Positions 1-59,838 of a DNA stretch of 64,000 bases are shown piece after piece. Position 1 is the first letter of the stretch. Each line of letters starts with the position of its first letter. Where the stretch lies: IMG/VR virus record IMGVR_UViG_3300011116_001007. One strand, 5' to 3'. The notes under the pieces were generated by a model. It worked only from the letters and a program-made list of their open reading frames with translations, ran no database searches and was not told where the DNA came from. A program made the position numbers and the translations under genes. This DNA is from a virus (taxonomy: Duplodnaviria; Caudoviricetes).

Positions 1-774
1 TACCATTCCTGAAGTTTCGGCGTCATGCTTGCGATGTGCTTGGCGCATCAGCTGCTGGAAACTTTCTCCTACAATCTCGCCATCTAACACAATTCCGCCT
101 GCTGGGATGTCAAGATCAGCAGCTTCTATAGCTTCTGCAATCTGCGGAAAGTTCATGAACTCTTTGCCGTTACGGCTGTACAATGTCGCATTGTTTCTAG
201 TGACCACTGCCAGCACACGCACGCCATCCAGTTTGACTTCCAGGCGTTTGATGCCTTTCATCTTGGCCGGACGATCAGTTGAGTCCTGTGCCAGTTGGCA
301 TGAAAATACTGGAATGCGATATTGTGTTTTGCCCAACACTTTGTTCAGAGTTTTTTCGCTGATGCCACAACGAAGGTCTTTAGAGATCACCGGCGCACAT
401 ACCAGGTTCCATTCGTCACTGTCAAATTGATCACGGATGTCTAGCAGTTGATCTCTGGCTGCATGGCCAGTGTAGCTTCGGGTGCGTAGTGCTTCCAGCA
501 GTCCCCAGAATCGAGGCCACGGATTGGCTTGTCCTGTGCGTCCCGGCTCGGCCGCAGGAAGTTGCTTGACGTAGTAGGTGTAGAAGGGATTGTAGGCCTG
601 GTAGCAGTTGAACAAAAAAGCCTGTGCATCGGCACTGCCCAATTTTGAAGCCATCAGGGCTTTTTCGATAACTTTTTCCTTGTGAATGCGGCTGTCAGAT
701 TCAGCAAGTTCTTTTATCCAACCTGATGACATGACACCCTCATAACGCGGATCATTGGGGTTGTATTCATTCAT
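1..774 (-). CDS. ATP-dependent DNA ligase (T4 gp30-like), 3' part runs off the left edge
   Basis: Not in the ORF track; hand translation from ATG at 774 (MNEYNPNDPRY...) stays open to base 1 and contains EVKLDGVR (motif I, KxDG), YSRNGK and LDGEI (motif III). Confidence 0.93.
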   Translation of the reverse strand, partial: MNEYNPNDPRYEGVMSSGWIKELAESDSRIHKEKVIEKALMASKLGSADAQAFLFNCYQAYNPFYTYYVKQLPAAEPGRTGQANPWPRFWGLLEALRTRSYTGHAARDQLLDIRDQFDSDEWNLVCAPVISKDLRCGISEKTLNKVLGKTQYRIPVFSCQLAQDSTDRPAKMKGIKRLEVKLDGVRVLAVVTRNNATLYSRNGKEFMNFPQIAEAIEAADLDIPAGGIVLDGEIVGESFQQLMRQAHRKHDAETSGMV

Positions 775-16691: not shown

Positions 16692-17042
16692 TTACATTGG
16701 GCGTTTCATTGCTGACTTGGCAGCGGCTGCAACAATGTCTTGAGCACGATTCACTGGCATGGCCGGATCAGTTTCTTCGCCGCCTTTGAATGTGATCACA
16801 CCAGAGTTGGGATCCAGTGGTTCCAGCATGTTGCTCAGTGGAGGTTGTGCAATCAAGTCGCCAAGATTTTGTCTGTTTACGTTGATGTTCAGACTTTGGG
16901 CCAAACTTACAAATGCATCTTGACTGATCTCTTTTCGGGCGTTGGTATCATTTGAACGGCCAGCCAAAAAAGAAACCAGTCCCATCAATTGATTTGGACT
17001 TGGAGTTGCCGATGCTGAGTCGTCAACTTCAAATATACGCAT
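16692..17042 (-). CDS. hypothetical protein, putative head protein
   Basis: 116 aa; MRIFE N-terminus; downstream of the TAAATA at about 18023. Confidence 0.7.
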   Translation of the reverse strand: MRIFEVDDSASATPSPNQLMGLVSFLAGRSNDTNARKEISQDAFVSLAQSLNINVNRQNLGDLIAQPPLSNMLEPLDPNSGVITFKGGEETDPAMPVNRAQDIVAAAAKSAMKRPM

Positions 17043-17998
17043 TATCTACGTGCTCGGCCTAATGCTGCTCCAACTGGGGGTTCGGCAGCAGCTTCGAGAT
17101 CACCTTCGCCCGGAGGTGGTGCGTCCAGGCCTACATCGCCAGCAGCGGCACCCATGTCTGCGCCAGCTGCGGCCATGTCACCAGCAGCAGCGCCAGCATT
17201 GGCAATGGCGCTCATGTCTGGTCCGCCTGTGCCTGTTACCACGCCCAGTGCAGCTTCCAATTGTTGCTTGGCACCTTGCAGATTTTGCAGCAAGCCAGCC
17301 AATGCGCCAGTGGCGTCAGTGTTGAATTGCATGGCTTGATCTACACCAACTTGATTCTTGATGCTTTCAACCAAGGCAGGCAGGTCTTTGAATTGCAATT
17401 CACTGACTTCTTCTACCATGTCTTGCATTTTGTCCACTAGGTCTTGAGCAGCCAATACCACTTGAGCCTGTTGAATCTCAGACTCTTTCAAAATGCGATA
17501 TTCTCTACGCAAACGGCTTTCAGCCATGGCCATCATAGCGCCAGCTACCAGTGCCTTCTCGGCAGCCGAAAGTGTTTGTCCAGATTCACTTTTCTTCATT
17601 GCAGCAGCCACTTTGGGATCTTGAGCAGTTGCTGGCGGCGCTGTTGGTGTTTGTCCTGGTTGTGGTGCTTGCTGGATGGTTTGTCCAGGAGCAGCACCAG
17701 TGGTGCCTGGTCCATTGTTGGGTGCGCCGCCGCCGCCGCCGGGAACAACTTCTTCACGCAGGCGACTGGCCAAGGCTTGTTCCATCATGACCAGTTTCAA
17801 ATAGTGTGGATTTTGTTCACTGGTATGGCGTGCAGTGGTGCTACGATGTTCACCCAATACGCCACGTACTTTGTTCAGCATTATTCGTGTTTGACGTGAG
17901 TTCAAACGGTCAAATTTGATGCGTGAACCAAAATAACTTTCGAATACTTTGGCAATTTGTTTTGATGGCTTAGGAGCCGCTAGTTCTTGCAGTTTCAT
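17042..17998 (-). CDS. putative prohead core/internal head protein
   Basis: MKLQEL start; LREE, MAES and LKES sites; Gly/Ala/Pro-rich acidic tail; late promoter CTAAATA upstream. Confidence 0.65.
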   Translation of the reverse strand: MKLQELAAPKPSKQIAKVFESYFGSRIKFDRLNSRQTRIMLNKVRGVLGEHRSTTARHTSEQNPHYLKLVMMEQALASRLREEVVPGGGGGAPNNGPGTTGAAPGQTIQQAPQPGQTPTAPPATAQDPKVAAAMKKSESGQTLSAAEKALVAGAMMAMAESRLRREYRILKESEIQQAQVVLAAQDLVDKMQDMVEEVSELQFKDLPALVESIKNQVGVDQAMQFNTDATGALAGLLQNLQGAKQQLEAALGVVTGTGGPDMSAIANAGAAAGDMAAAGADMGAAAGDVGLDAPPPGEGDLEAAAEPPVGAALGRARR

Positions 17999-18449
17999 TA
18001 TGGAATCCTCTAATCTGTAGATATTTAGCCGAATTTATACATTTTTCCAATTCGGCGGTCACTGATGCAAGCATATCTATCTTGGGTTGCATCTTAGTAT
18101 TTACTATTTCGTAAAACGATTCATGGCCGCTGACTTCGGCTGTTTTTCGGCTGCAAAAGATGTCTGTTTTGAGCACCTGTTGCCTACGATCCAGTATCAT
18201 TATGTTGTTGGACAAGTTGTATCGTTGAAATTTATCTGCCACACACCAGCTGAGTGCAATGCGTTTGGTGGAAAAACAATGTATAGCACTGTGCCAGTCA
18301 CTGACCAAGAATCCATCGGCGGTTTGAGTTATGTCGTACTTGCCAAACACAAAGTAGTTGGCACCGTCGTCGTCACTCACAATGGTGTTGGCGGAACTTT
18401 TTTTCAACTCTTTTGTTAGCAAAAGTTCAAACTTTTTTTCATTCATCAT
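17970..18449 (-). CDS. hypothetical protein
   Basis: Start refined to MMNEKKF at 18449 (ATGA overlap with the upstream stop). Confidence 0.7.
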   Translation of the reverse strand: MMNEKKFELLLTKELKKSSANTIVSDDDGANYFVFGKYDITQTADGFLVSDWHSAIHCFSTKRIALSWCVADKFQRYNLSNNIMILDRRQQVLKTDIFCSRKTAEVSGHESFYEIVNTKMQPKIDMLASVTAELEKCINSAKYLQIRGFHNETARTSGS

Positions 18450-18712
18450 AGAGTTTTGAAGTATTGTGCAGCCAACCAGCCCACAGTGGCCACTAGCACA
18501 CCAATTATACCTATGCCCCAATTGACTATTTGATCGTTGCGTTTGGTTGTCATGGTTTCCATCATGCCTCTAAGATCGCCCATGACCTTGTGCAGGCCTA
18601 CCAGGCGCTCTTCCAAGGTATCCAGCTTGGTCTCCAGCAATCTATAACGTTCTGCACATAGTTCCACGTGAGCTTCGAGACTTTTCTTTTCAATATCAGT
18701 TGTGTCCACCAT
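18446..18712 (-). CDS. coiled-coil protein with C-terminal transmembrane helix (XhlA/holin-like)
   Basis: Heptad-like N-terminal region and hydrophobic WGIGIIGVLVATVGWLAA; late promoter upstream. Confidence 0.55.
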   Translation of the reverse strand: MVDTTDIEKKSLEAHVELCAERYRLLETKLDTLEERLVGLHKVMGDLRGMMETMTTKRNDQIVNWGIGIIGVLVATVGWLAAQYFKTL

Positions 18713-18714
18713 GA

Positions 18715-19146
18715 TTACTCCAATGATGTATTTAGTGGTAGGAACCAGATATTCTGATCTGAGCCCACTGTGGTAATGGTGGATTTCAGTTCAGGTTGTT
18801 CGGTGAGATTTGTCATCATGGGCACATCTTCACAACCTTGTACCAGTCCTGCTAGTGGATCCGGGTGGCCATCTATTGCATATACTGAAGGAGATTCCAC
18901 ACGAAATTCAAATTCCCACGCACCAGTGCGATACACAGGTGTGGTGATATCCAATGGTTGTGTACGCAAGCCTATGATCTGCAATAGTGTTTCCCAGTTG
19001 CGTTGTTGATTACGGCTGTGATGCCATTCTGACTGATTGGTTATTTTTTGCCCTATGCGGTCTTCAAACGGGATTTCACCTGGTCTAAAATGGCCAGTGG
19101 TACCTGTATAACTGCAATCAAAAAGTGTGCGACATTGTATTCTCAT
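18715..19146 (-). CDS. hypothetical protein
   Basis: Start refined to MRIQCRTLFD, 8 nt after TAAATA. Confidence 0.7.
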   Translation of the reverse strand: MRIQCRTLFDCSYTGTTGHFRPGEIPFEDRIGQKITNQSEWHHSRNQQRNWETLLQIIGLRTQPLDITTPVYRTGAWEFEFRVESPSVYAIDGHPDPLAGLVQGCEDVPMMTNLTEQPELKSTITTVGSDQNIWFLPLNTSLE

Positions 19147-19163
19147 TAGATAGATATTTAAGG

Positions 19164-19200
19164 CCAAAAAGAAACCCCGGATTTTTTACCTCCGGGGTTG
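19164..19200 (-). terminator. intrinsic terminator
   Basis: AACCCCGGA...TCCGGGGTT stem followed by TCTTTTT on the minus strand. Confidence 0.75.
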
Positions 19201-19219
19201 CGGCTATCGCTGACCTGGA

Positions 19220-19627
19220 TTACAGGCTAGTGAAGCTGGCTGTGTTGCTCACGTTGGCAGTTGGGATACCAATGTTCAAACCACCAGTTGCGTTGGCCAC
19301 TTGAGCAGCAGCAACCAAGGTAGCTGTGGTGTAAGCACCATTTGGATAGATTGCCAAGCTGATTGTACCAGCTGTAGCGCCAGCTTGATAAATTGCAATG
19401 GTACCAGTTTGTTGAATAGATTGCAACACATTGTTCAAATAACCATTGACGTTACCGGCATTGGTCAAAGCAGCGTTGGCTGTCAATGTGAAGAAGTCTA
19501 GTTTAGGACCTTGGATCTGAACTGGACCTTGAGCAGCTACGTTGGCTGTTCCTGCGATGGAACCGTTTGCCACGTCCAGTGCAAATACTGGTTGTGTAGT
19601 TCCGTTTACTTTTGTAAATACTGCCAT
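19220..19627 (-). CDS. small virion structural protein (abundant late protein)
   Basis: Ala/Thr/Asn-rich 135 aa; perfect TATAAATA upstream, 5' hairpin, SD AAGGA and its own terminator. Confidence 0.7.
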   Translation of the reverse strand: MAVFTKVNGTTQPVFALDVANGSIAGTANVAAQGPVQIQGPKLDFFTLTANAALTNAGNVNGYLNNVLQSIQQTGTIAIYQAGATAGTISLAIYPNGAYTTATLVAAAQVANATGGLNIGIPTANVSNTASFTSL

Positions 19628-19688
19628 GATAAATTTCCTTTAAGTTAGTGGGTTGTTGCCCTACTTTTATTTATACAATTGGCAAAAA

Positions 19689-21707
19689 TCACTGGGGTTG
19701 AGGATTGTTTTTTGCTTTGTTTCTGGCGGTAAAATCAAATCTATTCACTGCTTTGCCATAGCCTGCAGGGGTTGCAAACACCCATCCTTCATTGCCGGGC
19801 ACCTGTGCATCTAGTTTTCCTAACATATCCAGTTTTAAGTCATGCAACATTTCAAACAACAAGAATGCCGCAGCCAACCCCTGTTCATTGCTGGTAGGAC
19901 TACTCAGGTACTGTGCAATGTTGCCAACTTTTTGTGGTGTTTGTGTTTGTTCCAACCAGGCTAAGAATCCAGGCACAAGGTCACGAAAATCACCTGTGTA
20001 GGCAGCGTGTCTTGGATCTACTCTTTTGTTTATGTAGTCTATGGCCAACTTGGCCAAGTCAGTGATCTTCATTGCACGTAGTTCACCAGGATTGAGCAAA
20101 GTATCTATAGCCTGACGATTTTGTCGTAGCAGTGTTTTGATCTGGTTGTACATGGGACTGTTCTTGGGTACAGGTTTTGCGGTGATTGGTTCTATCAGCA
20201 ACAATCCTTCCACAGGATTAAATTTGACTCCGCTGAGTGGTTGTTTGGCAGCACCTGCATCTGCATACATAGTGTGTACAGCCACACCTATGTTGCTGTT
20301 GGCAATTTGTTGTCCTAATTTGCTGTCCGCCGGAATACGATATGTCACAGTGTTGGGTCTAAATATCAGTAGTCCAGCAGACTTATAAACTGCGCCGGGT
20401 ACAATTTCTTCTTCTGTTGCTGGCAACGGGTTATTGGTGTTGGCCCAGTACATCAGATCTCCTTTGACATATCCACGGAAGTTTGTAGGAGTGGCTGCTT
20501 CAAGATATGGCCAAATAGCGTTGTATGTTGGCAGTAAAGTTTTGACTCTATCTGCTTTGTTGCCTTTGGCAACAGCATTAGCATCTCGTCGAGACATATC
20601 GTCAGCAATGGCATCTGTGCTGGTAAACAATCCATCGTAACCAGCTGCTGAAAAACCCGAATCATCTGTAAGCACAAACTCACCAGTTGCGGGCTTGCGA
20701 CCAAACACCACAGCAGGTTTTCCATCCCATTTTACGGATCCTGTTTGAGAATTTTTATAAAACCCATCAGCTATGGCCAATGCTTGGTCTACTCCAGCAC
20801 TGCCCTTGCGGAAAATATAATCTTCCAGGTGTTCGATGCCTTTGGCTTTTCCGCCTACAGCAGCAGGTTCTTGTTCGTAAAGTTGGTAAGATTTTTTAGT
20901 TTCAACCAAGGCCACGTATCCGCGATTCACAATGCGATCTCTTAATCTAGCTAGGAAATATGCGTCGCTTTCTTTCACAGATAAGTCGGGTTCTTGCAAG
21001 CCTTCGCCGGCTAGATAACCACGGAAGTCTTGAAGCTTGGCATCACGGTTGGGATCTTTGGCCAATGCAGCATAGATTGATTCTACATTCTTTAGATTGG
21101 CACGAGTAGCACCGCGTCCCAATAGCACCTGGGCCACATAATCAGGATCCAGGCCACCTTGTACCAGTTGATTTGTGGTTCTAGAGAACATGCCATTGGC
21201 GCCTACTTTGAGTCCCAGTTGTTTGGCTATGCTGCTCATTAGCACGTTTCGATTCATGCCTTTGTAAGCTGAGTCTGTGCCACCGCCATAAAAGAACTGT
21301 CCCCAATCCAAGTTGGGAAAGAACATAAAGTCAGTTTGCACAAATCCACGATTGGCATCACCGGCAATGGGTGTTTTTAAATGTACTTCCCCGCCCTTCT
21401 TGACCCATTCTCTAGGATCCAGTCCTTGGCTTTGTACAAATTGAGAAAGTATTCCAGCCAATTGTTCTTTTGAAACTTCATTCAGATCCACAGCAAGATC
21501 CAAGTCTCCTGATGAGGGGGCTTTGCCAGTTGACCCCAACCAACGCAATGGTATGCCATCGTCATCTTTGTCGGTGCTGAAATCTAAACCAGTAACTTGT
21601 TCTATCCATTGGACCGTTGCTGGTACATCTTGTCGATTGATACGCTGTGTAAGCGGTTCTTTGTTGGGCCCTTTGAATACATTTCCGCCTTCTAATAGAT
21701 ATCTCAT
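19689..21707 (-). CDS. fusion of Pol-beta-superfamily nucleotidyltransferase and ligase-like (KxDG) nucleotidyltransferase domain
   Basis: N-domain LGSTG...GDLDLAVD and VQTDF; C-domain SVKWDG, KGDLMY, NEGWVF and GKAVNR. Confidence 0.75.
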   Translation of the reverse strand: MRYLLEGGNVFKGPNKEPLTQRINRQDVPATVQWIEQVTGLDFSTDKDDDGIPLRWLGSTGKAPSSGDLDLAVDLNEVSKEQLAGILSQFVQSQGLDPREWVKKGGEVHLKTPIAGDANRGFVQTDFMFFPNLDWGQFFYGGGTDSAYKGMNRNVLMSSIAKQLGLKVGANGMFSRTTNQLVQGGLDPDYVAQVLLGRGATRANLKNVESIYAALAKDPNRDAKLQDFRGYLAGEGLQEPDLSVKESDAYFLARLRDRIVNRGYVALVETKKSYQLYEQEPAAVGGKAKGIEHLEDYIFRKGSAGVDQALAIADGFYKNSQTGSVKWDGKPAVVFGRKPATGEFVLTDDSGFSAAGYDGLFTSTDAIADDMSRRDANAVAKGNKADRVKTLLPTYNAIWPYLEAATPTNFRGYVKGDLMYWANTNNPLPATEEEIVPGAVYKSAGLLIFRPNTVTYRIPADSKLGQQIANSNIGVAVHTMYADAGAAKQPLSGVKFNPVEGLLLIEPITAKPVPKNSPMYNQIKTLLRQNRQAIDTLLNPGELRAMKITDLAKLAIDYINKRVDPRHAAYTGDFRDLVPGFLAWLEQTQTPQKVGNIAQYLSSPTSNEQGLAAAFLLFEMLHDLKLDMLGKLDAQVPGNEGWVFATPAGYGKAVNRFDFTARNKAKNNPQPQ

Positions 21708-22189
21708 GGTGCTGTGCCTGCTTGCTGTTTAGGGTGAGTTTGCATCAAAACTCCTGCTTCATATGCAGCTTGTGCAATTGTTCGAAATTCAGCCAATTCT
21801 CTAGTGTCAACTTTTTCCACATCAAGATTACCCAACTGACGTATACCAGCATACAATTGATTCATTATGGTATCAGCTTGATTGATGTAGACTGGAGTAT
21901 AAGCGCCATTGTCATCTGTTTGAGATACCATTTGGCTTAAATTTGTAAAATCCATACCGCCAAGAAATTGATTTTGTGCCACTATTGAGTTCAATGCTTT
22001 TTTCAATGAAGTTTTAGATTGCGGACTGAGTTGTGCAGTGTCAGTGACTGCATCTGCTGCCAGGGCCTGAGACACCTGCCGAGACCACTGCCGTTGCATG
22101 TTTTGTGCAGCCTGGTTAACCATCAATGACGTGTTTGGCGCAGCATCTTCATTGACGCGAGATTTTCTAGTCAGTTCATGAATTTGCAT
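21704..22189 (-). CDS. putative internal head protein
   Basis: MQIHELTRKSRVNE-D N-terminus; coupled to the downstream fusion gene. Confidence 0.65.
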   Translation of the reverse strand: MQIHELTRKSRVNEDAAPNTSLMVNQAAQNMQRQWSRQVSQALAADAVTDTAQLSPQSKTSLKKALNSIVAQNQFLGGMDFTNLSQMVSQTDDNGAYTPVYINQADTIMNQLYAGIRQLGNLDVEKVDTRELAEFRTIAQAAYEAGVLMQTHPKQQAGTAP

Positions 22190-22424
22190 CTGTTTTCCTT
22201 ACTGATCGAGAAAATTTACCAGCGTTTTTTGTTCGTATGGCATTGAGGAATTTTCTAGTGAGGTTTTCTGCTGTTTCAGCATCAAATTCTGATTCAATCT
22301 GCTCCAGCAATCTGATGGCATTGGCTATCACGTTGCTCGCGCGATTTTCTATTACCAACCGACGATCTCGCTCGATGTACAGACTGTCCAGTTCTTCTAG
22401 TATGCTGCGGGTTTTCTTTTGCAT
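22176..22424 (-). CDS. hypothetical late protein
   Basis: 82 aa, downstream of CTAAATA at about 22447-22453. Confidence 0.7.
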   Translation of the reverse strand: MQKKTRSILEELDSLYIERDRRLVIENRASNVIANAIRLLEQIESEFDAETAENLTRKFLNAIRTKNAGKFSRSVRKTDANS

Positions 22425-23529: not shown

Positions 23530-24525
23530 TTAGTTTTGCATTTTGAACATCTGCTGAAACAGTTCTGGGAATACAGCACGCCAATCTGTGCCTCGTCGTT
23601 GATCAATAGAATCCAAGGTAGCAATTATTTTAGATTTTCTGTTGTCTGTATCTTTAAGAGCGAACACCCCATTTGTTAATTGTTGTCGGTGTTCTATAGG
23701 ATCTGTAAATCGCGTGGTGTGGAAATTTGTTTGCAGCCACTCTTCTAACTGTTTAAGATTGTCGGAATTTAGTATGCCAACTGAGGTATTGGTAGCAAAC
23801 ATACAATTGTGCGGCGCATTATCAATATACCATTGCAAATTATCTGTCACCTGAGCCCACTTTGCAGGGAACCGTTGGTATTCAAATCTTTCACCAACAT
23901 CATCAATACTAAAATCAAGTTGCACTAACTTAAATTGCTCCCACAAATTCAACAACTCTTTATTTGGTAATATAGTCCCATTGGTGTTGTAATTTAAGTG
24001 TACTTGATCTTTGTGCTCAATTGCATGTAACAATTTCACATGTTCTTTACTCAGCAACGGTTCACCGCCATTGAAATGTATAAATTGTATGCTGCTCAAG
24101 TCGATGGTTTTCCAAAACTGATTGGCCGTTGATTTTTGTAATTCTATAGGTAGCCCAAGTTCTTGTTTCCACACACTACTGTTATTCGGCCCGCATATTA
24201 CACAGGCCAAATTACATGTATCGCCAGTCCAGTAATCCATACGAATTAGCTCAACCTTGTTGTTGTTAAGATTGTGGTCTTTATACCAAGAGTTGCTGCC
24301 TTGCCGTCGGCTTGTTAGTCCAGCAGCTTCGGCATCTTTACAATTACTACACGCTGTTGGTAACTGTCCAGTAGATATCTCATTGCGAAGACCAACAAGG
24401 TATTTGTTGTTTAAAAAATCAATTACTTCAGCTGAGCGTACAGGAGATATACAACAAGGCGAAATTGCTAATGCATTTTGCTGAGCCACAATGTTTATAT
24501 TTTTATAAATGTCAATGCATGTCAT
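23530..24525 (-). CDS. radical SAM protein with N-terminal SPASM/twitch-like Cys cluster
   Basis: CNLACVIC, FNGGEP, NTNGT and SIDD; N-terminal PCC...CSNC. Confidence 0.9.
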   Translation of the reverse strand: MTCIDIYKNINIVAQQNALAISPCCISPVRSAEVIDFLNNKYLVGLRNEISTGQLPTACSNCKDAEAAGLTSRRQGSNSWYKDHNLNNNKVELIRMDYWTGDTCNLACVICGPNNSSVWKQELGLPIELQKSTANQFWKTIDLSSIQFIHFNGGEPLLSKEHVKLLHAIEHKDQVHLNYNTNGTILPNKELLNLWEQFKLVQLDFSIDDVGERFEYQRFPAKWAQVTDNLQWYIDNAPHNCMFATNTSVGILNSDNLKQLEEWLQTNFHTTRFTDPIEHRQQLTNGVFALKDTDNRKSKIIATLDSIDQRRGTDWRAVFPELFQQMFKMQN

Positions 24526-57304: not shown

Positions 57305-57871
57305 TCATTTGGCTGTTAGCCACGAATACGAACTTACTCTTAAAGAGTTAGCAGGTACAGGAGTCAGCATACCGTGCCATTGTAATTTTCTATACCCAGT
57401 TGAATCTGCATTGTTTATCATGAGATATCCTGCGTTTGGAACGGCTTCAACTTGATATCTCAGTGCAGCAGGATTGTTGTAATGATAAAATGCAGTGCCC
57501 AAATTGTCACCGATCCAGGTCATCTGAATAGCGCCTGGCAACTCCCCGTCAGTATGTATTCCGCAAATAAATCCTGGTTCATCAACCCACCAGCCTGTGC
57601 CCGAGTATTGCGCTACCGTACAATCCAGTGCTGTTCCAATCTTGGGCCACAGTTCTTCGCAATAGTCATTCCACTGTTGAATCCATTCTATTGCTGCATT
57701 ATCAATCTTGCGACGTTTTTGATGACCTGGTTGTGGCTGCCAGGGCAGTTTGGCCCAATCAGTGTCAAGGACCTGTTGAACCAGTGATGGTGGAAACAGA
57801 TCCATCACGCGGAACAAGTTTAGGTCTTGATCAACAGCAGTTATTTGCATAAGAATGCCAACTCCGGCCAT
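57305..57871 (-). CDS. 2OG-Fe(II) oxygenase-like protein
   Basis: HTD (HxD), a distal WH and R-x-S. Confidence 0.7.
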   Translation of the reverse strand: MAGVGILMQITAVDQDLNLFRVMDLFPPSLVQQVLDTDWAKLPWQPQPGHQKRRKIDNAAIEWIQQWNDYCEELWPKIGTALDCTVAQYSGTGWWVDEPGFICGIHTDGELPGAIQMTWIGDNLGTAFYHYNNPAALRYQVEAVPNAGYLMINNADSTGYRKLQWHGMLTPVPANSLRVSSYSWLTAK

Positions 57872-58989
57872 AGGCGCTGAAACTCGCCAGCTTTGTCTGG
57901 ATGATATTTGGTTTCATTGTTATGCACATGACGCCAAAAGTCTGTGTCAATTTTGCTAATTTTATCCACACTCAATCTATTGTGATAAGTGGTTAGTGCA
58001 TTGTCAAAAAACTGACGTTCAGCAGGTGTAGCAATGTTCATGGCATAGAATCTTTCAATCTCTGCAATTGCTGCTTGAGCAACTGCTGCACCGTGCAAGA
58101 ATGGATCAAGGTATTCAGGTTGAAACAAGTTTTGCCATAGCACTGTGGTTTTAGTTTGTTCGGCAAATTGTCTTAGTTCACAAATACGTGTGGCATTGTA
58201 CATGTTGTACACTGCATGTATACCACCCCAATGGCCTTGTGTGGTCATCAAGTGTTTGATCTTGGCAAGATTTTCTTTGATCAACGACCAACTGGCTCCG
58301 TGACGCACATACTCCAGTTGTTCACCAGTGTTATCAAAACTCATTGACCAGCCCACCCGGTTTCGTTTGGATAATTTTTGAAATATTTTGTTTTTGTCTA
58401 GATCCACATTCAAGTTTGTGATTAGTGTGACAATGGCATCCTGGGGTATGACATCTAGTAGCCGATCATTTTCTGGCAACAACAGTGGTTCTCCACCAAC
58501 CAAGGCCACCTCGTGTATGTGTTCATAGTGCTGTTCAATAAAGTCGCAGACTGAATCGTAGTAGGGACGAGCACCAGATTTGAATGGAATTCCTTTGATA
58601 CTGGCCCATTTTGAACTGCATGATTCGCCGCAATAATTACAACTTAGATTGCATGTGGTGTTCCAACGTACATCTACTATCACAGGATAATGATATTGGT
58701 TGCCAGCAGTGGCATAATCAAAATTGGGATTCACGTTGTTGTGCCATTGCCGTTCAGAGTCTGCTCCAAAGCGTTCAGCTCGAACACAATTGGAACAATA
58801 GTCGTGCGGCTGACCTTGTGCCAAACTGGCACGTATTTCTGTCATGAGATTGCTGTTCAGTATCTGCTCAATGGTCTGGCTGTTCAAATTGCCCAGCATG
58901 TTGGGATTGCCGGCACAACAAGTTTTAACATTGCCTTGAGGATTGATATGCAAGCCGCGCCAGGGTGCAGCACAGTAGAAATTGGTCAT
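57841..58989 (-). CDS. radical SAM protein with N-terminal SPASM-like domain
   Basis: FYCAAPW...CC...CSNC; CNLSCNYC; VGGEP; TN; SFD; TAAATA 4 nt upstream. Confidence 0.9.
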   Translation of the reverse strand: MTNFYCAAPWRGLHINPQGNVKTCCAGNPNMLGNLNSQTIEQILNSNLMTEIRASLAQGQPHDYCSNCVRAERFGADSERQWHNNVNPNFDYATAGNQYHYPVIVDVRWNTTCNLSCNYCGESCSSKWASIKGIPFKSGARPYYDSVCDFIEQHYEHIHEVALVGGEPLLLPENDRLLDVIPQDAIVTLITNLNVDLDKNKIFQKLSKRNRVGWSMSFDNTGEQLEYVRHGASWSLIKENLAKIKHLMTTQGHWGGIHAVYNMYNATRICELRQFAEQTKTTVLWQNLFQPEYLDPFLHGAAVAQAAIAEIERFYAMNIATPAERQFFDNALTTYHNRLSVDKISKIDTDFWRHVHNNETKYHPDKAGEFQRLWPELAFLCK

Positions 58990-59022: not shown

Positions 59023-59838
59023 TTAATCGTCTGCTGCGCCGCATTTGGCACGTTTGGCTCGGGTCAGTGCACCAAAATCCACAGCCCATTCTGTTCCGGG
59101 GTTGAGTTCGCGAGCATTGGCTGGGAAAGCAAACTGCACTCCTGCCATGGTTTGAATTTGACTGACAGGCAATCTAAACTTGGTCAGGTCATTGCCTAAG
59201 TTGGGATATGGTGCAGTGTGTGGGAAAGTCCAACCGGCGATTTCGTGTGTTTGATTGTTGATCACAATCTTGTAAAAGCCATGTGGTACAACCACACCCC
59301 GACCAATCTTCTTGTCAGATGCATCGTAAAAACTGCCTGCAATGACAGTATATGCTTGATTGTGCTGCGCTGCCCAGCCACGCACTGATGTTTCTAGCAA
59401 TTTCCAAATGCCGCGATTCAAGCTGCCAGCTTGTGGACTCATGTTGGTCATCAAGAAACTTTCAAACTCCACCTGTTGATCCCAGCTTAGATCGCCATCG
59501 GGTGCCATGTGCCCTTTGTCAAATCCTGTACCAGCATAATCATCCGGAGTGGCTCCATTTGAGATTAATTGATCTACTGCAAATGCATTGGTACGTGCTA
59601 CACAACCCAGTGCGTTGGGTGGTGTGAGTGTGTATGCCACATAGTTGGGAATTTTGGCCTGTGCGTCATAGGCCACAAGATATGCCTGCCGGCAGATGGG
59701 TTGTAACTGGTGTGCAGTTTTTGCAAATCCATATGGTTGATGCACTTTACACATGGGCAATGGATTGGGAGCTCGTTGCGTCCAAGCCTGTGCTAAATTA
59801 ACGGCTGTGAGTAACAGCACAAACAAAAGTTTTTTCAT
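59023..59838 (-). CDS. secreted DNA/RNA non-specific endonuclease (NucA/Serratia type)
   Basis: Signal peptide MKKLLFVLLLTAVNLAQA; DKGHMAP, TNMSPQ, LNRGIWKLLE and VPHGFYKIV; TATAAATA 4 nt upstream. Confidence 0.92.
   Translation of the reverse strand: MKKLLFVLLLTAVNLAQAWTQRAPNPLPMCKVHQPYGFAKTAHQLQPICRQAYLVAYDAQAKIPNYVAYTLTPPNALGCVARTNAFAVDQLISNGATPDDYAGTGFDKGHMAPDGDLSWDQQVEFESFLMTNMSPQAGSLNRGIWKLLETSVRGWAAQHNQAYTVIAGSFYDASDKKIGRGVVVPHGFYKIVINNQTHEIAGWTFPHTAPYPNLGNDLTKFRLPVSQIQTMAGVQFAFPANARELNPGTEWAVDFGALTRAKRAKCGAADD

Follow-up and report, generated by a model that had tools for sequence, protein, structure and literature searches.

What does a tailed phage gain by joining a polymerase-like nucleotidyltransferase to a ligase-like domain in a single protein, and does that protein travel in the phage head? 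The gene that raises these questions, P0001, lies in a stretch of 64,000 nucleotides (here, the window) from a virus of the Caudoviricetes (Duplodnaviria; IMG/VR record IMGVR_UViG_3300011116_001007). A preliminary description, made from the sequence alone, read the product as a family X polymerase (PolX)-like nucleotidyltransferase fused to a ligase-like adenylation domain and proposed that it is packaged in the head for end repair at entry. That interpretation is partly supported. Structure models and searches bear out both folds, and the packaging proposal has real, if indirect, support from conserved sites, gene context, and one virion proteome. From these data, we arrive at a tentative reading of P0001 as a head-loaded enzyme pair that would fill gaps and seal nicks in DNA, and we weigh it here against three rival explanations.

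The gene and its neighborhood

P0001 is a jumbo-phage gene that joins a minimal family-X-type polymerase domain to a DUF6267 domain with a ligase fold, and every motif quoted in the preliminary description is present in its translation (Table 1). Homologs are numerous, with 3860 found by word sharing, 1239 representative clusters at E<=1e-3, and 420 relatives in IMG/VR; a megablast search against isolated phages gave no match. The start of P0001 and the stop of the upstream ORF share 4 nt, and the two co-oriented upstream genes belong to the same block of overlapping starts and stops. A TAAATA box lies ~20 nt 5' of the start of the 82-aa protein, and an 80/82-aa partner gene is kept upstream in relatives L006 and L055. 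Neighbors of P0001 match PHROGs annotated as virion structural proteins, and most of them have no match in Pfam. An 81-aa virion protein encoded upstream of the homolog in phage PA5oct was considered as a counterpart of the 82-aa protein and ruled out, as the two do not match.

Synteny with a DnaB/gp41-type replicative helicase is kept in the window, in L006 and L055, in Atu_ph07, in cyanophages, and in HTVC008M. The phage also carries the ordinary DNA ligase that the preliminary description had attributed to it, a canonical ATP-dependent enzyme at the window edge. A second ligase in such a genome needs a special role, the nature of which is not indicated by this coexistence.

Table 1. Positions of P0001, its domains and motifs, and nearby genes in the window.
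Feature	Position	Strand	Basis or remark
P0001, whole ORF	19689..21707	-	672 aa: PolX-like domain + DUF6267 ligase-like domain
Leader MRYLLE (aa 1-6), candidate prohead-protease site and short targeting peptide	21690..21707	-	
PolX-like palm and thumb (aa 7-209)	21081..21689	-	AF2 model and structure searches
Catalytic GS..GDLD (GS-x8-D-x-D, aa 58-70)	21498-21536	-	
Third Asp, VQTDF (aa 123-127)	21327-21341	-	
Thumb helix YKGMNR	21249-21266	-	
Helical linker (aa 210-290), conserved RLRDRIVN helix and two conserved [L/I]-x-E sites	20838..21080	-	
Linker site LVE (aa 267-269)	20898-20912 region	-	
Linker site LYE (aa 276-278)	20871-20885 region	-	
DUF6267 ligase-like covalent nucleotidyltransferase domain (aa 291-665)	19713..20837	-	Pfam PF19782, E 1e-24
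IEHLED	20820-20837	-	
Motif I, KWDG (aa 326-329)	20721-20732	-	
Motif III, KGDLMY (aa 415-420)	20448-20465	-	
Candidate motif IIIa, FRPNTVTY (F449-P-N-x-x-x-Y456)	20340-20363	-	
Helical insert, ~120 aa (aa 517-635), between motifs IIIa and IV	19803..20159	-	Model helices 238-356, domain numbering
Motif IV, NEGWV (aa 639-643)	19779-19793	-	
Motif V, GKAVNR (GKAV aa 651-654; K652-x-V-x-R656)	19740-19757	-	
Two co-oriented upstream genes, overlapping-start/stop block with P0001	21704..22424	-	ORF calls, PHROG match
82-aa upstream protein	22176-22424	-	phrog_11854 'virion structural protein'
161-aa upstream protein, N-terminus MQIHEL	21704-22189	-	
Canonical ATP-dependent ligase, N-terminal part, KLDGVR, cut by window edge	1-774	-	PF01068

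The N-terminal half resembles family X polymerases

The AlphaFold2 model of the N half (mean pLDDT 90.8) matched PolX enzymes in all of the top 50 Foldseek hits and in ranks 1-10 of a wide VIA-align search. Model residues 12-209 aligned with residues 139-335 of Pol beta (Z 10.8, rmsd 3.1 Å, about 160 aa), and the polymerase of African swine fever virus (ASFV Pol X) aligned over nearly its whole length (157/176 residues, Z 9.6). Non-PolX nucleotidyltransferases of the Pol-beta group matched the palm alone (about 85 aa, Z 6.5 or less); CD-NTases, OAS, and MenT, with Z about 5, were likewise confined to the palm, and PolX was a far better match than CCA-adding enzymes or TUTases. The modeled thumb directly follows the palm and is superposable on PolX thumbs, in keeping with the likeness to the ASFV enzyme that had been proposed from an FFYGGG...GANGMF stretch at about aa 138-174.

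The palm signature of Pol-beta nucleotidyltransferases, hG[GS]-x(7-13)-D-h-[DE] with a third carboxylate, is present (G58-S59, D68-L-D70, and D126). In a diverse alignment of 66 sequences, conservation is >=85% at G58, G61, S66, G67, D68, D70, and D126, so the quoted motifs are not chance occurrences. Sequence profiles gave little: the Pfam models DNA_pol_B_palm and DNA_pol_B_thumb had no match in P0001, the Pfam PolX models stayed below threshold on the 66 homologs (sub-threshold palm matches in 2/66, best E 0.0019), and the N-domain profile returned only noise from PDB sequences. Two N-domain homologs have weak matches to the AbiEii nucleotidyltransferase.

The helix-hairpin-helix (HhH) fingers and the 8-kDa dRP-lyase domain are absent; the domain starts at residue 7, and the palm/thumb match begins at model residue 12, about a dozen residues after the domain start. 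ASFV Pol X equally lacks both parts, and their absence therefore does not exclude polymerase activity. By its model, the N half is a minimal family-X-type polymerase of palm and thumb, with an intact predicted three-Asp metal site (D68/D70/D126).

The C-terminal half has a ligase-like fold

The C half matches PF19782 at 87.9-90.7 bits, against a curated cut-off of 27. Across 49 diverse sequences, K326, D328, G329, E640, G641, and R656 are invariant, W327 is >90% conserved, and D417 and K652 are >=85% conserved, and here too the quoted motifs are evidently not due to chance. Candidate motifs III, IIIa, IV, and V occur in canonical order on predicted strands of the AlphaFold2 model (mean pLDDT 90.8). 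In an unbiased VIA-align search with this model among 48,161 representative PDB chains, each of the first 26 ranks went to an ATP-dependent ligase of RNA or DNA, with modest Z scores of 7.7 to 5.3, and capping enzymes ranked next. The best matches were NgrRnl (Z 7.7), Trl1 (6.8), T4 Rnl2 (6.6), and T4 Rnl1 (6.4); RNA and DNA ligases lie about 1 Z unit apart, which is a tie by the measure of the tool. Foldseek gave weak matches enriched in ligases. Because Z reaches only 5.3-7.7, support for the ligase fold comes from the exclusivity of the match list together with the motifs.

P0001 ends 20 aa past motif V, and an OB domain and motif VI are absent. The C half thus cannot be counted among canonical DNA ligases or capping enzymes, and in this respect it is RNA-ligase-like. 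Sequence methods did not link DUF6267 to known ligases: profile searches with PF01068 and relatives found no match in the C half, P0001 and the DUF6267 profile retrieved only noise from PDB sequences, and hhalign detected no similarity between that profile and a related phage's canonical ligase. The middling fold match (best Z 7.7) and the missing sequence link count against a function in DNA filling and sealing, as do the small margin by which RNA ligases are the nearest structures and the lack of the OB domain on which DNA ligases rely. As modeled, the C half has the fold of polynucleotide ligases that adenylate a lysine, with their candidate motifs in order, K326 as the predicted nucleotide acceptor, and a helical insert in place of the OB domain. 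The folds of both halves are well supported by these models. Nucleotide signaling (such as cyclic-nucleotide synthesis) or capping, which the preliminary description offered as an alternative, is disfavored by the PolX thumb of the N half and by the ranking of capping enzymes below ligases for the C half. A search of a literature library found no paper naming DUF6267.

The two domains recur together

Besides fusions in either order, the two domains are found repeatedly as adjacent genes, singly, and within polyvalent proteins. Among the 150 top representatives, at least 47 are N-to-C fusions and at least 4 are C-to-N fusions, and in L006 the polymerase and DUF6267 domains are encoded by separate, adjacent, overlapping genes. 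Fusion in both orders and gene adjacency support a functional linkage of the two domains. Some homologs are fused to HAD-type phosphatase domains (NT5C, DUF2608), which can be likened to end-healing enzymes. Homologs of both domains also occur inside multidomain proteins of 800-1300 aa with ART-PolyVal, Tad3, amidoligase, and other modules, and polyvalent proteins encoded by phages are predicted to be head packaged (PMC5512222). A cytidylyltransferase-like domain of the NMNAT type (CTP_transf_like) is a recurring fusion partner; a fill-in-and-seal function leaves it unexplained, which counts against that function.

In metagenomes, DUF6267 comprises over a thousand diverged clusters; it also sits in the replication module of 6/6 Kyanoviridae genomes (five cyanomyoviruses and one pelagiphage). 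The PF01068 ligase is absent from the same six genomes, and the PF01653 ligase is absent from the three of them tested for it. Large proteins encoded upstream of cyanophage DUF6267 (Syn1_159, SRSM4_065) were tested for a hidden PolX domain, and this was ruled out. DUF6267 was found nowhere in Atu_ph07 or PA5oct, and a candidate ORF tested in Atu_ph07, two genes downstream from the one for the N domain, was rejected as well. Helicase synteny, Kyanoviridae genomes without a canonical ligase, and the HAD phosphatase fusions support a DNA context, and we infer that DNA is the substrate of P0001.

Leader, linker sites, and signs of packaging

All 120 close homologs examined (120/120) have a leader of 5-9 aa, which ends in LLE in 119 and in IFE in one. 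More broadly, [L/I/V]-x-E precedes the polymerase domain (beginning GGN.F) in 90/90 diverse homologs, whether that domain is N-terminal or internal, and the homologs of the jumbo phages Atu_ph07 and PA5oct begin exactly at the residue after the conserved Glu. Leaders such as MRFTEFKTTLLE in stand-alone homologs and MRAQEFLIE in neighboring genes are close to the capsid-targeting sequence (CTS) MKTYQEFIAE of T4, and the start signature M[RKQ]..E[LFIV] occurs in only 3/78 window ORFs, all three flanking P0001. T4 Alt, an injected enzyme, has a propeptide of only 7 aa (PMC9026906).

For the linker, the preliminary description had named an LKE/LYE-type site; LYE is there and so is LVE, and there is no LKE in the linker. 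Both sites are kept in 120/120 close homologs and in most diverse N-to-C fusions, and model confidence (pLDDT) is low at aa 272-276. Because [L/I]-x-E is a common pattern, only weakly enriched in long homologs overall (378 observed vs 327 expected), only its positional conservation counts.

ESI-MS/MS of CsCl-purified virions detected the N-domain homolog of PA5oct, EST35_0231, which carries the annotation of a structural protein. Both Atu_ph07 and PA5oct encode a gp21-type protease (PF03420), which speaks for packaging; scans of window ORFs and of three partial relatives yielded none, which counts against it. The detection in PA5oct virions, the exact post-Glu starts, the CTS-like leaders, and the polyvalent contexts support packaging, and we infer that P0001 is head packaged and protease processed. 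The family would not always be cargo, given that cyanophage DUF6267 proteins have essentially no leader and are sited among replication genes.

Proposed mechanism and alternatives

The two folds together with the marks of head loading suggest that P0001 is possibly a gap-filling, nick-sealing enzyme injected with the genome. In this scheme, the polymerase domain would fill short gaps or trim up 3' ends by templated addition, and the ligase domain would adenylate itself on K326, pass the AMP to a 5' phosphate, and seal the nick, giving a fill-in-and-seal pathway on one polypeptide comparable to Pol beta/Lig3, to ASFV PolX/ligase, and to the PolX-ligase fusion of Phaeocystis globosa virus (PgV). 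A T4-type prohead protease would cut after the leader L-L-E and at the two linker [L/I]-x-E sites, leaving the two enzymes as separate pieces in the capsid that enter the cell along with the DNA. There the enzymes could mend the genome as it comes in, before the replication ligase of the phage is made; the nicks and gaps in question might be pre-existing, arise in the environment, or be the work of host nucleases. That this head-packaged, protease-processed, two-enzyme cargo protein exists as described is, in our estimate, somewhat short of an even bet, and the canonical ligase of the phage counts against it.

The same gap-filling and nick-sealing chemistry could instead belong to an unpackaged, cytoplasmic accessory of replication or repair that works alongside the helicase-primase, with the finishing of Okazaki fragments, base-excision-type repair, and the repair of modified DNA as possible tasks. 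We hold this version to be unlikely, though the likeliest of the three rivals. Linkage to the replicative helicase in every lineage examined speaks for it, as do the leaderless DUF6267 proteins in the replication modules of cyanophages and pelagiphages whose genomes lack a canonical ligase. Residues G7, G8, N9, and F11 are, furthermore, as conserved as the Glu that precedes them, which a cleavage site alone would not need; LxE-GGN.F could be part of the fold or active site, structural or catalytic, instead of a cleavage site. An unpackaged accessory nevertheless leaves unexplained why leaders vary in length and sequence yet keep only L-x-E, why the first residue of two homologs is exactly the one that follows the Glu, why PA5oct virions contain a homolog, and why the domains are met within polyvalent proteins and beside genes with CTS-like leaders.

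Two further explanations change the substrate. The C domain might reseal tRNAs or mRNAs cut by host anticodon nucleases or RNase defenses while the N domain restores or extends RNA 3' ends, by analogy with T4 Pnkp plus Rnl1 or Rnl2. That its best structural matches are RNA ligases, that it shares with them the missing OB domain, and that the HAD fusions are reminiscent of the T4 Pnkp phosphatase all suit RNA repair; we nonetheless think it improbable, because the structural margin over DNA ligases amounts to a tie, the N domain looks like a templated DNA polymerase, thumb included, and fits CCA-adding enzymes and TUTases far worse, no kinase or 2H/cyclic phosphodiesterase partner was seen, and the gene context is one of DNA replication and virions and not of tRNA. 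More improbable still is a conflict effector with no role in polynucleotide repair, in which one or both nucleotidyltransferase domains would attach nucleotides to a host protein or to a small molecule, or would synthesize or degrade a nucleotide signal or an NAD-related metabolite. Fusions to ART-PolyVal, the Thoeris inhibitor Tad3, amidoligase, NT5C nucleotidase, and NMNAT-type domains fit such a role, the weak AbiEii matches are in line with it, and Iyer et al. class the Pol-beta nucleotidyltransferases of polyvalent proteins as protein modifying (PMC5512222). Against this, polyvalent proteins mix unrelated activities, so that the identity of a fusion partner is a poor guide to the pathway; a thumb specific to PolX and a full set of candidate ligase motifs suggest action on nucleic-acid ends; and CD-NTases, OAS, and MenT match no part of the N half beyond the palm.

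Comparison with known systems

ASFV Pol X works with a separate viral ligase in repair. Like the N half, it is a minimal family X polymerase (about 175 aa) of palm and thumb only, with sequence identity of about 16% to it, and the ASFV ligase differs from the C half in being canonical, OB containing, and encoded by a separate gene. Bacterial LigD, like P0001, combines a polymerase and an ATP-dependent ligase in one protein for end repair, and it adds a phosphoesterase. It differs in that its polymerase is of the archaeo-eukaryotic primase type and not PolX, its ligase has an OB domain, it has a Ku partner, and it is cellular; no Ku was seen here. In PgV, PgVPolX is a PolX fused to an NAD+-dependent ligase and was shown by experiment to carry out gap filling and nick sealing in base-excision repair (PMC5537341). 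That enzyme belongs to a giant virus of eukaryotes, has a ligase half with homology to NAD+-dependent ligases, and possesses dRP/AP lyase activities, whereas P0001 has palm and thumb only, a DUF6267 fold variant, a bacterial host, and signs of capsid targeting.

NgrRnl (Rnl5 type) and T4 Rnl2 (Rnl2 type), the best C-domain matches with a nucleotidyltransferase domain free of OB, reach Z of only 6.6-7.7 against DUF6267 at 10-14% identity; in NgrRnl, as in P0001, the nucleotidyltransferase domain is C-terminal. DUF6267 has features of its own, namely, the ~120-aa helical insert before motif IV, at whose position canonical ligases have nothing, and a conserved I-x-H-x-E-D before motif I with no matched counterpart in NgrRnl or T4 Rnl2. 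The T4 internal proteins and Alt share with P0001 a short N-terminal leader ending in L/I-x-E, removed in T4 by gp21; by comparison, the cargo here would be nucleic-acid repair enzymes freed from a predicted two-domain precursor by cuts at internal sites. For polyvalent proteins, processing by a zincin-like metallopeptidase was proposed by Iyer et al. in 2017, and the signal in P0001 instead resembles that of a T4-type prohead protease; a term search of that paper returned no PolX-like polymerase and no DNA-ligase-fold domain (PMC5512222).

Implications

These results give DUF6267 a testable function and add phages to the viruses with a family-X-type polymerase, for which a 2022 review of phage polymerases listed ASFV as the sole viral example. 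The compact polymerase-ligase pair and the OB-less ligase are possible reagents. DUF6267 is also a candidate for the DNA ligase apparently missing from T4-like marine phages. On the broadest reading, T4-supergroup phages, many uncultured jumbo phages among them, would load into the capsid a polymerase-ligase kit that the prohead protease cuts from a precursor at L/I-x-E sites and that is injected to fill and seal breaks in the arriving DNA before phage gene expression; DUF6267 would in addition supply T4-like cyanophages and pelagiphages with their long-missing DNA ligase. We regard this as doubtful at present. Were the kit reading true, no earlier case of injected DNA-repair machinery would precede it. 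Should the packaging signals prove genuine, DNA repair enzymes delivered with the phage genome would form a new class of ejected protein, relevant to how phage DNA withstands UV or oxidative damage while outside the cell and nicking or restriction as it enters.

Domain architecture of the fusion protein

The preliminary description reported an open reading frame (ORF) with nucleotidyltransferase and ligase-like motifs, which we confirmed; every quoted motif lies at its place in the 672-aa protein except LKE in the linker, which carries LVE and LYE instead. We detected 3860 word-sharing homologs (E ≤ 1e-3), the 120 listed among them at 68 to 95% identity, along with 420 relatives in IMG/VR, and an exhaustive search gave 1239 representative clusters. 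Judged from its sequence, the fusion protein is under clear selection. Because genes for a T4-type large terminase, UvsX, a gp32-like SSB, a DnaB-type helicase, primase, and RNR lie in the window, and close homologs occur on contigs of up to 358 kb, the source is a T4-supergroup jumbo phage.

Residues 1 to 285 had no match in Pfam or PHROGs, and Pfam PolX models fail on this family because its sequences are too diverged. However, G58, G61, S66-G67-D68-x-D70, and D126, the Pol-beta NTase signature, are near-invariant across 66 aligned sequences. Family X polymerases constituted all of the top 50 PDB matches found by Foldseek for the AlphaFold2 model (mean pLDDT, 90.8), and a search of 48,161 chains independent of Foldseek placed PolX enzymes at ranks 1 to 10 (beta, lambda, Thermus, TdT, ASFV Pol X, Leishmania, mu, and Deinococcus). 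By VIA-align, model residues 12 to 209 superimpose on the palm and thumb of Pol beta (residues 139 to 335; Z, 10.8; rmsd, 3.1 Å; ~160 residues), and ASFV Pol X aligns at a Z of 9.6 over 157 of its 176 residues. Since these matches span palm and thumb, whereas TUTases, poly(A) polymerases, CD-NTases, OAS, MenT, and CCA enzymes match only the ~85-residue palm (Z ≤ 6.5), the modeled N half is specifically PolX-like and minimal, with neither fingers nor an 8-kDa domain. The PolX-like fold proposed earlier is thus supported by model, structural searches, and signature residues alike.

Residues ~291 to 665 match Pfam DUF6267 (E = 1e-24), a name mentioned by no paper in a literature search for it. 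Among 49 aligned sequences, invariant residues include K326, D328, and G329 (KWDG), E640, G641, and R656; D417 and K652 are near-invariant. Foldseek matches to the C-half model (pLDDT, 90.8) were weak (E ≥ 0.03) and mostly to ligases. In an unbiased VIA-align search (48,161 chains), ATP-dependent RNA/DNA ligases took all of the top 26 places, at Z values (≤7.7) that are not decisive taken alone: NgrRnl (7.7), Trl1 (6.8), T4 Rnl2 (6.6), Sulfolobus DNA ligase (6.5), and T4 Rnl1 (6.4), down to LigD (5.4) and a Rhizobium phage ligase (5.3). Two unrelated chains followed, then capping enzymes from a Z of ~4.9. Because this ligase-only list coincides with candidate motifs I, III, IIIa, IV, and V in order on predicted strands, the C half is very likely a covalent nucleotidyltransferase, and the ligase-like fold suggested earlier holds. 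It departs from ligases in a helical insert of ~120 aa before motif IV and in the absence of an OB domain.

Among the 150 best representatives, at least 47 are N-to-C fusions and at least 4 are C-to-N fusions, and many are stand-alone versions of either domain; in one metagenomic locus (L006), separate genes that overlap encode the two. Isolated phages carry one domain or the other (the PolX-like protein only in Atu_ph07, Phosso, and PA5oct-like phages; DUF6267 only in cyanomyoviruses, HTVC008M, Melnitz-like phages, and a 349-kb Vibrio phage), so each can work alone, yet they have been repeatedly joined. In all five long fusion proteins examined, DUF6267 is immediately followed by a cytidylyltransferase-like (HIGH-motif, PF01467) domain, and such a gene is next or near-next to DUF6267 in cyanophages and HTVC008M. 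None of the proposed models accounts for its role beside a ligase-fold enzyme.

The fusion protein is a member of neither the Pfam-defined PolX nor the Pfam-defined ligase families; each half instead represents a diverged phage family of its fold, and the combination is new. The closest precedent in function is PgVPolX, from a giant algal virus, in which a PolX is joined to an NAD+-dependent ligase and for which filling and sealing of BER intermediates has been demonstrated (PMC5537341). For the polymerase half, the nearest structural precedent is ASFV Pol X, likewise minimal. The cellular protein LigD is analogous, but its polymerase has another fold.

Features and coordinates in the window, in compared genomes or loci (L), and in homologous proteins (P)
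Feature	Location	Strand	Details
Fusion ORF	19689-21707	-	672 aa; ATG overlaps upstream ORF stop by 4 nt
T4 late-promoter box	19668-19675	-	Perfect, TATAAATA; between fusion-gene stop and 135-aa gene
135-aa gene	in 19220-19675	-	Starts MAVFTKVNG; downstream of fusion gene
Canonical ATP-dependent DNA ligase	1-774	-	N-terminal 258 aa, cut by window start; PF01068, KLDGVR
271-aa protein	59023-59838	-	DNA/RNA non-specific endonuclease domain (PF01223, E = 6e-42)
Paralogous radical SAM proteins	23530-24525, 57841-58989	-	Both match phrog_14086
PolX-like fusion proteins	P0264 aa 296-412; P0244 aa 238-378		Tad3 Thoeris-inhibitor/ART-PolyVal fusions
Cytidylyltransferase-like domain/gene	P0151, P0155, P0164, P0171, P0220, P0244, P0251; L004 6167-6736; L105 5736-8475; L089 7386-9176
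Six Kyanoviridae genomes	L003, L004, L089, L098-L105		DUF6267 between gp41 and gp61

Leaders, neighbors, and possible packaging

An [L/I/V]-x-E tripeptide precedes the GGN.F with which the polymerase domain begins in all 90 diverse homologs, whether that domain is N-terminal or embedded hundreds of residues into a larger protein. Leaders of 120 close homologs differ in length and sequence (MQINKLLE, MKTLRTLLE, and MRYLLE, for example) and end in LLE (119) or IFE (1); in Atu_ph07 and PA5oct, the protein begins precisely one residue past the Glu, as M-GGRAF and M-SGNAF, respectively. DUF6267 domains are usually preceded by [L/I]-x-E-(G/A)-A-R, just ahead of a conserved I-x-H-x-E-D, and the fusion linker has two [L/I]-x-E sites kept in all close relatives. 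Leaders of stand-alone homologs and neighbor genes (e.g., MRFTEFKTTLLE, MKIQELLE, and MRAQEFLIE) resemble the T4 capsid targeting sequence (CTS), MKTYQEFIAE, in which gp21 cuts after I-x-E. CTS-mediated delivery has its precedent in T4 Alt and the internal proteins; the propeptide of Alt, an enzyme that is injected, is just 7 residues long (PMC9026906).

Four genes clustered at window 16692-22189 (minus strand) have similar short leaders (MRIFEV, MKLQEL, MRYLLE, and MQIHEL). These hold [L/I]-x-E at residues 3 to 6, and only 2 of ~70 ORFs outside the cluster have it that early. An M[RKQ]..E[LFIV] start occurs in only 3 of the 78 window ORFs, all flanking the fusion gene. Two neighbors match PHROGs annotated as virion structural, and the PA5oct homolog carries a structural-protein annotation (ESI-MS/MS of CsCl-purified particles).

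Homologous domains also occur in polyvalent proteins with ART-PolyVal, Tad3, amidoligase, NT5C, and cytidylyltransferase-like modules; phage-encoded polyvalent proteins are predicted to be head packaged (Iyer et al. 2017, PMC5512222). Single proteins fuse the PolX-like domain to a Tad3 Thoeris-inhibitor domain or to an ART-PolyVal ADP-ribosyltransferase, which places the family among anti-defense polyvalent proteins.

Against packaging, the [L/I]-x-E tripeptide is common, and conservation is just as high in the residues that follow the Glu. A gp21-type protease was not found in the window or in partial relatives, although Atu_ph07 and PA5oct encode one. The earlier proposal of an injected end-repair enzyme, although unproven, is plausible and now draws on several independent sequence-level signals; the mode of deployment is probably new.

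Elsewhere in the window, the small 135-aa gene downstream of the fusion gene is a conserved partner, with a 93-aa homolog after DUF6267 in L006. One radical SAM gene sits between the replicative helicase and the cargo-like cluster. The 271-aa endonuclease-domain protein, with a hydrophobic, signal-peptide-like N terminus, is unusual beside packaging genes.

Substrate and a candidate marine phage ligase

RNA repair is a possible function of the fusion: RNA ligases head the C-half list, by a margin inside the VIA-align tie range, and the C half has no OB domain. A DNA substrate is nevertheless favored because the partner has a templated-polymerase fold with a thumb, because the replicative helicase lies just upstream of these genes in every lineage examined, and because the six DUF6267-bearing Kyanoviridae genomes tested lack a PF01068 ligase. 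The fusion should have a specialized role, since the jumbo lineage of the window has both it and a canonical ligase (full 455-aa counterpart in a related 262-kb contig, L092).

All six Kyanoviridae genomes tested (S-RSM4, Syn1, HTVC008M, P-SSM2, Syn9, and P-SSM4) carry DUF6267 and none has a PF01068 ligase; PF01653 (NAD) ligase was absent from the three checked. A published remark likewise counts gp30 among the genes that marine T4-like cyanophages lack. Because of this pattern, DUF6267 is a good candidate for the missing DNA ligase of T4-like cyanophages and pelagiphages.
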